Of a DNA stretch of 29,493 nt, positions 6,001-9,000 are shown one piece after another (the first letter of the stretch is position 1; each line of letters opens with the position of its first letter). Location: positions 1 through 29,493 of IMG/VR virus record IMGVR_UViG_2537561932_000024; one strand, given 5' to 3'. Made by a program: the position numbers. This stretch comes from a virus. Lineage: Duplodnaviria; Heunggongvirae; Uroviricota; Caudoviricetes.

Positions 6001-9000
6001 AAGCCCTGACTGTTCCCGCAGTTGGGGCTTCAACGTTTTTCCACTTCATTTTGAATTTGCTTAAGTAGCATATTTGTCTCGTCAAGCCTCTTGTTAATAC
6101 GGTCAAGGCTTTCTACTAAATCGTTATGTGCATGTGATACCTCGTAATTTGAGACTGATTTCTTTTCCTCTATCGTCTTTGTCAATCGTTCCCCTGATTG
6201 ATACATATTGATTAACGATGTAAAAATCACGAGCAAGCAAACTACAATGATTGCGCCAGACAAAAATTGTAAAGAACGATCAAGCAATGACACCTTCATA
6301 CCGTTATCCCCTCTCTCTTCAGGCTGTCCAGCACCCGCTTGTAAATCTCAGAGTTAACAGATCGCCCGTTCTCTTCAGCTACCTTGCGCACCAAATCCAA
6401 CACTTCTTTAGGCCACCGCAAATTGAACTGCGGCATTTTGCTCATTCCTTTCATGTTCACCTCACAATATAGGTCCACCGTGGACCTATTGAGAATATAG
6501 TAGAGTGCTTCTATCATGTCAATACACTAACTTGGAGTGATGGCATGGCTAGAGATGATCCGCACTTTAACTTCCGTATGCCTTTGGAAGTAAGAGAAAA
6601 ATTGAAATTAAGAGCCGAGGCTAACGGAAGGTCAATGAACTCTGAGTTATTACAAATCGTTCAGGATGCTCTCTCAAAGCCATCACCGATTGCAGGCTAT
6701 CGCAACGAAGCTGAACGCTTGGCTGATGAACATTCGGATATCGTAAAAAATATGGTATTCGAAACTTTAAAAAAACTTTATGGAAAAGAAAAGAATGAGT
6801 AATAAAGAGCTTGTTAAAAAATCAAATAACTGTGTCGATGCATATGCTGACTCATTTGGATACTCTTCATTTGGTGACGGTTCCCAGCGATTAGGTTCAA
6901 TTTCTTTTTTTCATAATGTAACTGAATGGCCTGTTGATGAAAGCGGTGATGTTGAAAACATAAAGTACAATATTGCCACCATTAGAATGCCTGAAGAATT
7001 GATGCTTAAATTGGCGGACTTCATTCGCGACCAACATTATAAGGCTAAAACAAACGAGTCGTAATCAATGATGAAACACGATTATTACGAAGCTCCAAAT
7101 CTAACTGAAAAGCTTGAACAAGCGGAAAAATCATCATCTTTGTACACAAATCCAATTTCTCAGTCATCAGGAATGTCTGGCATGAATATGGGCATGCTAC
7201 AATCAAGTGGTGGTGGAGCTGGGAGTAACAACATGCTTGAGGCTAGGGTTGCACGGTTAGAGGCAGATGTTGAAAACATTAAGACCAATCTATCTGAGGC
7301 AAGGTCTGACATCTCTCGTTTGCGTGATATCTCAGCTGATACATCCAGAGATGTTGCGGTGGTCCTGCAAAAAATAGTAGATGTAGACGAAAAATTATCA
7401 AAAAAACCGAGTAAGAGCGAAGTCCAGACATTGATCTCTACTGCAGTAAACAAGCAAATACTATGGACCATAGGGACTGGATTTGCTCTTTTAGGGATAG
7501 CTAAATATATATTTTAGCTCACCTCATCAGCTATCTTCTTGTTCCATTCACTCAGCGCCACTGCTAGGAAAACTAAGGAGGTTGGTGTGAAGAAAAAATT
7601 TTTAAACGTTGCAAAGTGCGCAATTTTTATATTTTTTATGACCTTTTACGGATTTAGTGCCGGAGAAGGTTTCGATCGTGATGCCAATGCATTCAGTTTC
7701 TTTTGTCTGTCTATAGTGGTCATAATTGTATGGGTGGAATTAAAGCAAACATTGTTTCATGTGCTAGGGAAATAACCATCCATGGCATTTAGTCACTGCT
7801 GTGTTGCCTCAGTGGCAAGCAGCGGTCTGATGGCATTTGCAGCGTTACTTAATGCTCTTTCATAGGCTGGCGTTCCTGCTTTGGTGTTTGCCAGACGTAA
7901 GAGCGCATTCCTGGCCATAGGGCTTTCATAACCCCTCGACATAAGGCCAATCCCTGTTTCCCCAGCCAATAGCGCGCCTCCGGTTTTTAGGTTACCAATA
8001 ACCCTTACCAAAGGCGCGAGTGTCATGCCAGTCTTCGTCACAACATTAGCCTCAGATGCTCTTTTGGTAGCATCGAGAATAGATAACATCCCCTCTATCT
8101 CTTTTCCGTTCTTCCCACCAAATACAGTTTTAAACACCTGACCATTTGCTTGTTTTTGCAGCTTGCCAAGCTCGGTCATCATTTTCTGAGGGCTGTCACC
8201 TACCTTGTCAGCTATTTTGCTGATATATGCCGCCCTTAGCATGTCTTTACCTTTTTGATCGAGTTTCCCGTACAATCGAGCTATATCTGACCCATATTGT
8301 CCATACACAATGGTATTTACAGCCTCGGGAGTTAAATCTCCTTTGTTTAGAACGTTTTTAAGGCGCGTTTGAGTTGCATGTGTTGCCATTTTTGCATAAT
8401 CAGCTTTTCCCGCTCTCCATGCTGAAGCATCTTTTGGGCTAAGTCCTTTCGCTATAGATTTACTAAGGCTATTGGTTAGCGAGTTGTAGACCCTGTTGAT
8501 CATTGTTTGCGACATTGATGGCAGAACTGTACGATCGCCTTTTACGTCAATGCGGAACTGAGTTCTCAGCTTATCAAGTAACTCAAAGGCATCATCTCCA
8601 TTTGTTATCTCCTGAATGGCATTCTTATAATCATTAAGCGCAGAAATGGTCTGGGTGTCAGAAACACCTTTAAGTTTCCCAAGTTCGTTTACTGCTCCGT
8701 CGATGGCTCTTATGGCGCCACTTGTATCAACTGGCTTTCCAACCATTCTTCCTGACAGGTTGTTTAGTTTTGACTTGGCTAACGATTTTTCCCTTGCAAC
8801 GCCTGACTTTAGACTATCAACGACTACAGATGGATCGTAGTCGCCGTATTTTTCGGTGAAGCGATTAACAAGCTTGGTTCTGGCATCCTGCTGTGCGGCT
8901 CTCATTGGTCCAGTACCAGCTATGACTCCTTCTGAGTAACCCTGCAGTTGATTGCCAAGTTTTGTTTTTGGAGGAACTACATCCGATGTCATAACTGGTA

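Follow-up and report, generated by a model that had tools for sequence, protein, structure and literature searches.

In phage P22, the promoter Pant of the immI region gives an early burst of transcription that is ended by Arc through autoregulation, and in lysogens Pant is repressed by Mnt, not by c2. The present analysis concerns a gene that is extra to this operon in IMG/VR virus record IMGVR_UViG_2537561932_000024, of which positions 1 to 29,493 (the whole stretch of DNA analyzed, called the window) represent a P22-like prophage of Escherichia coli. The gene is an open reading frame (ORF) of 89 amino acids (aa), ORF89, located on the minus strand at 6030..6299, between arc and the sar/ant region. 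The DNA around ORF89 is 100% identical to that of strain 503440, in which the protein is annotated as WP_001555392.1, 'hypothetical protein'. ORF89 is an uncharacterized phage accessory gene in a known hypervariable region, and an earlier note on this DNA, which had singled it out as an additional membrane-protein gene, described it largely correctly.

The hypervariable 'ant moron' (immI) region of P22-like phages is already known (Villafane et al. 2008, PMC2629481; PMC8022706). This block lies between the ejection-protein gene 16 and the tailspike gene and comprises mnt, arc, sar, ant and varying accessory genes such as sieA, with high genetic flux and a low G+C (GC) content, and ORF89 falls within it. 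What has been described as variable in the block is which whole genes stand on the mnt side and whether arc and ant are present at all (CUS-3 was reported to be without arc, PMC2629481), whereas the slot of ORF89 is internal to the arc-ant operon, with the arc tail on one side and the sar terminator on the other. The same slot is occupied by orf73 of Salmonella phage vB_SemP_Emek (Emek) and by ORFs of 67, 57, 74 and 80 aa, with the same arc tail carrying a Shine-Dalgarno sequence, the same (A/G)TGA overlap and the same TGA in the sar stem, but these ORFs differ from ORF89 in being unrelated in sequence and soluble, some of them with ClpX-type C4 zinc ribbons. There is also a regulatory analogy with the acr-aca loci, in which a strong early promoter is shut by a small autorepressor of the same operon, beside polymorphic, fast-changing small genes. 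In the case of immI, several unrelated ORF types stand behind arc, under a Pant that matches the consensus at 11 of 12 positions and is accompanied by P22-like operators; the differences are that here the repressor gene comes first and that the sole characterized cargo, Ant, targets phage repressors. To our knowledge, anti-defense activity has been described for none of the slot proteins.

Morons, in the sense of Hendrix and colleagues, are genes absent from close relatives, with their own promoter and terminator and a distinct base composition. The presence of ORF89 is indeed patchy, as EC.P3 and S.Kent 1-2-1 carry it and P22 and epsilon34 do not; lacking both a promoter and a terminator of its own, it is thus not a classical moron but an in-operon cassette. 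The AT-rich composition, which had been taken as the mark of an acquired moron, is an equivocal sign: the GC content is 36.3% for ORF89, 48% for arc and 46.4% for the window, but the neighboring mnt, orf94 and orf149 have 36-40%, and the entire stretch from gene 16 to the tailspike gene is AT-rich. P22 SieA, a prophage-expressed protein of 162-164 aa engaged in phage-phage conflict, is likewise encoded in this genome region and located in the inner membrane; it spans the membrane with three helices and has an FxRYPxEAxxFNK motif on the cytoplasmic side (PMC10883804). ORF89, in contrast, has one predicted helix, shows neither the motif nor sequence similarity to SieA, and should be repressed by Mnt in lysogens. 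Its assignment to the SieA family was rejected on the single hydrophobic segment and the absence of the motif.

ORF89 (89 aa followed by a TGA stop) is a genuine gene. It matches PHROG 27312 ('function unknown') with E = 6.5e-61 (residues 1-89 against profile positions 1-89 of 89), and in composition-matched shuffles of its 270 nucleotides (nt) an ORF of at least 80 aa arose in 7 of 5000 cases (0.14%). Homologues are found in the same slot, and the ratios of nonsynonymous to synonymous substitution rates (dN/dS), given below, point in the same direction. The ATG (6299..6297) overlaps the TGA stop of arc (6298..6296), forming an ATGA at 6296..6299, and a GAGGGG Shine-Dalgarno sequence (6313..6308) is placed 8 nt upstream, inside the last codons of arc; the overlapping start and the good ribosome-binding site reported earlier are therefore both present, and the overlap implies that ORF89 is translationally coupled to arc. 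The arc gene itself (6296..6454, minus strand, 52 aa, Pfam Arc 2.3e-26, aligned to P22 arc) is the first gene of the Pant operon. The annotated records of P22-pbi and epsilon34 have sar and ant immediately after arc, as the earlier note had stated for P22, and ORF89 is absent from both; the alignment shows ~263 extra bases between arc and sar/ant in the window.

At the 3' end, the gene runs into the control module of ant. The sar antisense RNA is encoded on the plus strand at 5969..6035 (Rfam RF00262, 65 bits against a gathering score of 43), and its promoter Psar (GTGAAA-17-TATACT with a TG extension, 5933..5961, plus strand) lies inside the 5' end of ant, at the position annotated for P22. 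The sar terminator hairpin (6000..6031, plus strand, with a T-run to ~6041) reaches into the end of ORF89: the stop codon has two of its three bases inside the hairpin, and the A-rich complement of the sar U-tail makes up the last ORF89 codons. The hairpin at the ORF89 3' end is thus the sar terminator, acting on the opposite strand, and no T-run is present in the sense direction. The insertion of ORF89 falls precisely at the junction of the arc tail with the sar terminator, and the whole sar/ant control module remains intact.

Pant (TTGACA-17-TATATT, 6494..6522, minus strand), together with the Arc and Mnt operators, has practically the P22 sequence, with 1-2 differences in the aligned stretch. 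No promoter-like site was found between the arc start and ORF89, so that transcription can come from Pant or by read-through only. By analogy with P22, ORF89 should be made in a short burst after DNA entry, until Arc closes Pant, and should be silent in lysogens with a Mnt-repressed Pant. The expression from Pant put forward in the earlier note agrees with the absence of another promoter-like site and with the ATGA coupling, but its extension to prophage induction is doubtful, since it is Mnt and not c2 that holds Pant off in P22. ORF89 is probably also present on late read-through transcripts toward the tailspike gene, as late transcripts of P22 read through into that gene (PMC2629481).

IMG/VR was scanned with the conserved sar-terminator sequence, which gave at least 119 loci, 114 of them with enough upstream sequence; the counts that follow refer to these listed matches. 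The slot is empty in 60 loci, with the arc stop placed within -3 to +6 nt of the stem TGA, and filled in 54, where an ORF begins on the arc stop via (A/G)TGA and ends on the TGA inside the terminator stem. An intact ORF is found in 53 of the 54 filled slots. ORF89 accounts for 6 loci; the others carry ORFs of 80 aa (2 loci), 74 aa (3 loci), 73 aa (Emek orf73, 7 loci), 67 aa (18 loci), 63 aa (1 locus), 60 aa (2 loci, one with an internal stop), 57 aa with a GTG start (11 loci), and a 12-aa deletion remnant of the 57-aa ORF (4 loci). The gene is therefore not universal in P22-like immI regions, and its description as an insertion, valid with respect to P22 and epsilon34, has to be amended in that it is not a one-off event but one allele of a slot filled in about half of the listed regions, and one of at least seven alternative small genes found there.

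The arc tail with its Shine-Dalgarno sequence is conserved ahead of all cassette types, and the sequences of the other slot ORFs are unrelated to ORF89. A CxxC...CxxC pattern is present in the 60-, 63-, 67- and 74-aa forms (e.g., L093, L094, L052, L108, L106). The 60-aa form matches Pfam zf-C4_ClpX above threshold (4.1e-11), the 74-aa form is sub-threshold for the same model, and the 63- and 67-aa forms share one PHROG. Standalone proteins resembling the ClpX N-domain, made from Pant, might interfere with the recognition of ClpXP substrates or adaptors. All the cassettes are listed by PHROGs as function unknown.

Identical ORF89 sequences are found behind Arc proteins that are just 49% identical to each other (the window type and the EC.P3 type) and precede at least four types of Ant, and the genes on the mnt side vary as well. 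Such a combination indicates that ORF89 travels as a cassette, with its limits at the arc tail and at the sar terminator. In all 114 listed loci a translated ORF, either arc or the slot ORF, stops inside the sar-terminator stem or -3 to +6 nt from it, and even the 12-aa remnant retains both slot junctions. This rule may reflect either selection for the delivery of ribosomes to the ant leader or merely shared ancestry. The slot is a previously unremarked, strictly structured cassette position in a classic operon, although the hypervariable region itself is already known. The searchable literature (subscription papers being outside its scope) yielded no account of the arc-sar slot or its proteins, including by accession and PHROG. 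In existing records 'boundary sequences' are annotated at the gene boundaries of CUS-3, and both Emek orf73 and the ORF of EC.P3 bear the label 'hypothetical protein'.

Two phage genomes deserve separate mention. In CUS-3 (L134, CP000711.1, ~2160..2503), the stretch annotated as 'bsq2; boundary sequence' hides an unannotated arc, ending ...SLKREGVMV at 2303, which is followed through an ATGA overlap by a 67-aa Cys-rich slot ORF at 2300..2503. In Escherichia phage PhiR12_1 (L136, PV340549.1, 968..2980), the lambda-type tail genes L and K enclose a complete mnt-arc-ant module that has the same sar region, and the immI module thus moves between podovirus-type and siphovirus-type genomes.

The ORF89 family is small. 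Among 5.8 billion clusters its close relatives form 8 clusters, 84-100% identical and several of them truncated or frameshifted; a HMMER search of 1.84 billion representative proteins gave 4 matches only, and a profile search added two relatives of 83 aa. About a dozen distinct sequences were counted among the 5.8 billion clusters. The 83-aa subfamily, with 40-49% identity, comes from a Serratia marcescens prophage and from metagenome-assembled P22-like contigs, and one of its members (P0009) also matches PHROG 27312, with 4.8e-19. All the family members found occupy the arc-to-ant position with the identical 4-nt overlap, and none was encountered outside this slot in the cluster, HMMER or profile searches. 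Of 5426 complete E. coli genomes, 308 have the sar region and 14 encode ORF89. EC.P3 and S.Kent 1-2-1 were its only carriers among 50,697 phage records. A scan of species-representative genomes gave a single locus, in Pectobacterium odoriferum, too few for a taxonomic census. The exact ORF89 protein is encoded on at least 1000 contigs of sequenced isolates.

In respect to selection, the dN/dS values are 0.25-0.5 overall, 0.29 against a 91%-identical allele, 0.25-0.36 for codons 1-51 against the 83-aa subfamily, and 0.10-0.16 inside each of the two C-terminal sequence types of the family. One locus (L133) joins an ORF89-like N-terminal half to the other C-terminal type. Frameshifted alleles of 60 aa recur (P0005, P0007, P0008; L139 and L140, E. 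coli chromosomal contigs, 4001..4183) and are caused by the loss of a single A in the A-rich GAAAAGAAATC run. The surrounding immI regions are otherwise intact, which means that ORF89 is dispensable for the resident prophage. With these alleles and with 14 genomes against the 308 that have the sar region, ORF89 is an accessory rather than an essential gene. A 94-aa protein (P0004, encoded in L138 at 5001..5285) was considered as evidence for a soluble functional form, which was rejected, since P0004 results from a deletion in a prophage remnant that fused the small-terminase (gene 3) region with the central part of ORF89; the remnant is defective, but the ant and tailspike genes downstream of the fusion are intact.

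The ORF89 protein is predicted to be a small bitopic inner-membrane protein, composed of a short N-tail, one helix, a conserved segment and a coiled coil of four to five heptads. The predicted transmembrane helix (residues 13-33, LSGAIIVVCLLVIFTSLINMY, 6201..6263 of the minus strand) follows a 12-residue N-tail and is strongly hydrophobic, with a 19-residue Kyte-Doolittle mean of up to 2.8. The remaining 56 residues (34-89) are highly charged (10 Lys and Arg, 11 Asp and Glu), and the hydrophobic segment and charged helical region noted earlier are both confirmed. The segment adjacent to the membrane, residues 33-44 (Y-x-SGERLT-x-TIE, 6168..6203, minus strand), is conserved in the family alignments, in which the invariant positions cluster at two places, LSGAIIV, F26 and T27 within the membrane helix, and Y33 and SGERLT-x-TIE right behind it. 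The C-terminal heptad-repeat segment (residues 54-86, 6042..6140, minus strand) occurs in two sequence types, and its hydrophobic a/d pattern is unbroken and retained in both. AlphaFold2 returned a single helix over residues 3-88, with a mean pLDDT (predicted local distance difference test) of 90; such a lone helix would match anything in a fold comparison.

Profile searches for a function, suggested in the earlier note, led to PHROG 27312 and to nothing characterized above threshold. Between an anti-defense factor and a modulator of Ant timing, the two possibilities raised in the earlier note, the searches gave no preference. The Pfam gathering thresholds were missed by DUF948 (15.9 bits against 37.2) and DUF1664 (16.5 against 34.6), and no family among the PADLOC anti-phage defense profiles matched ORF89 at E ≤ 0.1. 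DUF948 and DUF1664, together with designed coiled coils and MakA, were rejected as homologues, being sub-threshold coiled-coil noise. The automatic names attached to the exact protein, 'tetrahydromethanopterin S-methyltransferase subunit G' and 'YoxC', look spurious and would stem from coiled-coil similarity. An N-terminal transmembrane helix followed by a charged helical domain is a shape shared with the i-spanin Rz, the T4 antiholin RI and DUF948/YoxC-type proteins. An i-spanin was rejected, as the locus is the immI operon and not a lysis cassette and has no embedded or adjacent lipoprotein ORF; the sole nested ORF on the same strand (6124..6240, 38 aa) is without a lipobox.

We consider it highly probable that ORF89 is a real, arc-coupled membrane-protein cassette in a polymorphic slot. 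The explanation that we favor as a whole, namely a bitopic inner-membrane coiled-coil cassette expressed from Pant with an accessory conflict function during infection, is tentative: plausible, though not quite probable. The exchangeable cassette resides in a fixed immI slot, which is flanked by the C-terminal tail of arc, a dispensable part, and by the sar terminator. With no expression signals of its own, it would be transcribed from Pant and translated by coupling to arc. The conserved transmembrane helix and the adjacent segment would dock onto an inner-membrane target, and the coiled coil would oligomerize or capture a helical partner. During infection, ORF89 would thereby have an accessory role in conflict at the membrane: in one version it would block DNA entry by a second phage, in the other it would neutralize an exclusion or abortive-infection effector that is bound to the membrane and belongs to the host or to a resident prophage. 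Constraint located in the membrane helix and adjacent segment is typical of small proteins docking onto a larger membrane protein, and a coiled coil that is kept, but in two types, is consistent with oligomerization or a variable partner. A conflict function is favored because ORF89 has a membrane anatomy and travels with an operon that defeats resident immunity after entry, and a generic role in conflict at the membrane level comes close to an even call, just on its lower side.

Several observations weigh against this explanation. The other slot occupants are soluble, ClpX-type zinc ribbons included, and slot membership therefore says nothing specific on membrane function. Most known anti-defense proteins are soluble, and the known P22-type exclusion proteins are made by the prophage and not from Pant. 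Positive-inside counting leaves the orientation ambiguous, with 2-3 Lys and Arg in the N-tail against 3-5 in the 15 residues past the helix. The Pfam, NCBIfam, PADLOC and PDB-sequence searches with ORF89 gave sub-threshold coiled-coil matches only. Between the two C-terminal types dN/dS is ~1, which could mean relaxed constraint instead of module exchange.

The more specific versions of a conflict function are each unlikely, the better of them being a counter-defense role. ORF89 would then be cargo of an acr/aca-like operon that delivers an early burst of anti-immunity proteins from Pant, Ant being aimed at repressors and the slot protein at another barrier, and would inhibit a membrane-embedded effector of abortive infection or exclusion, resembling SieB, RexB or RonA and encoded by the host or a resident prophage. 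Polymorphic, unrelated small proteins beside a conserved ribbon-helix-helix autorepressor under a strong promoter are what such an operon should look like, Ant is itself an anti-immunity protein, and the cassette is independent of the Arc/Mnt specificity and of the Ant type. On the target side, small single-helix membrane effectors of abortive infection do exist, e.g., RonA (10.1101/2023.04.06.535777). No cassette, however, matches an annotated anti-defense family (PHROGs gives all as function unknown), the cassette sequences are absent from the supplements of the accessory-gene screen, and membrane-anchored anti-defense proteins are uncommon. The most far-reaching form of this reading is doubtful: the arc-sar slot would be the cargo slot of a burst-then-shut-off anti-immunity operon with Arc acting like Aca, each slot protein would inhibit a different barrier of the host or a prophage, ORF89 being the membrane-anchored inhibitor of a membrane-embedded abortive-infection or exclusion effector, and the stops at the stem would serve the delivery of ribosomes to the ant leader.

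Transient superinfection exclusion, which we also judge improbable, would require that a periplasmic coiled coil of ORF89 blocks the delivery of DNA through the inner membrane by later P22-like phages until prophage or late functions take over, like the early Imm of T4. The bitopic architecture and the predicted expression directly after entry would suit such a task, and the two conserved C-terminal types could mirror partner specificity. The same hypervariable region holds sieA in P22, and the action of SieA is directed against ejection proteins, at the inner membrane (PMC10883804). ORF89 is nevertheless dissimilar to this three-helix protein and lacks its FxRYPxEAxxFNK motif, a tblastn search with P22 SieA revealed no SieA-like sequence near ORF89 loci, and exclusion genes are normally expressed by the prophage, a state in which Mnt should repress ORF89.

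Less probable again is a role in the phage's own programme, in which ORF89 would tune the level or timing of Ant or the choice between lysis and lysogeny, e.g., via a membrane protease such as FtsH, or would act in cis, with ribosomes delivered to the foot of the ant-leader hairpin so as to couple ant translation, counter Rho or alter sar pairing. The stop of a translated ORF at or in the sar-terminator stem in every one of the listed loci, slot empty or filled, and the two junctions kept by the 12-aa remnant fit the cis version, and the cassettes with ClpX-type zinc ribbons hint at the control of proteolysis. The shared junctions can, however, be explained by inherited common flanks, P22 manages without any cassette, and purifying selection on the amino acids, with motifs invariant at 40-49% identity, is unexpected for a pure spacer.

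That ORF89 is a decaying or neutral passenger, a selfish or leftover ORF without function retained by linkage to immI, is very improbable: the narrow distribution with about a dozen distinct sequences, the frameshifted alleles and the deletion chimera in a defective prophage would be expected of it, but dN/dS is well below 1 (lowest within the C-terminal types), the gene is intact across genera, nearly all filled slots among the listed matches are intact, and the exact protein recurs on its many contigs.

In the window, the minus strand carries in order the gene for the gene 16-like ejection protein (7793..9658), arc, ORF89, ant (5089..5967, the antirepressor gene and the last of the operon, with Bro-N and P22_AR_C domains), an intrinsic terminator 3' of ant (5052..5071) and the tailspike gene (2604..4988). 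On the plus strand mnt (6545..6802, with an Arc-like domain and the Mnt C-terminal domain), orf94 and orf149 diverge from the Pant/Pmnt region. The product of orf94 (6780..7064) belongs to PHROG 4231, and that of orf149 (7068..7517, PHROG 3556) combines a coiled coil with a C-terminal membrane helix and gives weak XhlA/hemolysin-like and DUF1664 matches. Both genes lie directly 3' of mnt and are probably expressed in the lysogen; placed at the position of sieA in P22, they are candidates for exclusion or lysogenic-conversion genes. A functional link between ORF89 and the membrane/coiled-coil protein of orf149 was rejected, as the two co-occur in only 6 of 15 ORF89 loci.

Further genes of the prophage were also noted. 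A gene with a RefSeq NUMOD4 domain (homing-endonuclease-like; 12862..13395, minus strand; 905..1438 in L006) is located among P22-like tail and head-completion genes, and in the Serratia locus (L131) a comparable position is taken by an HNH_3/AP2 gene. An acyltransferase-family gene (1492..2388, plus strand), with a probable role in O-antigen modification, lies between the tailspike gene and an IntS-type integrase gene (1..1158, plus strand) at the prophage end; in strain 503440 this integrase-side end adjoins a tRNA-Arg gene and yfdC. Two phage-borne tRNA genes, tRNA-Thr (TGT) and tRNA-Asn (GTT), are found at 25199..25354 on the minus strand.

In general, descriptions of the textbook immI operon of P22 (mnt, arc, sar, ant) always place two genes under Pant, whereas in about half of the listed P22-like loci there is a third one, small and exchangeable, that follows arc ahead of the sar terminator. 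The slot constitutes a defined and easily mined hotspot of immediate-early accessory genes, of which the ORF89 family is predicted to be membrane-anchored. Should their function prove mundane, a small correction of annotation would still follow, e.g., the arc and cassette of CUS-3; should they be conflict genes, the slot would be a ready source of new counter-defense or exclusion proteins.

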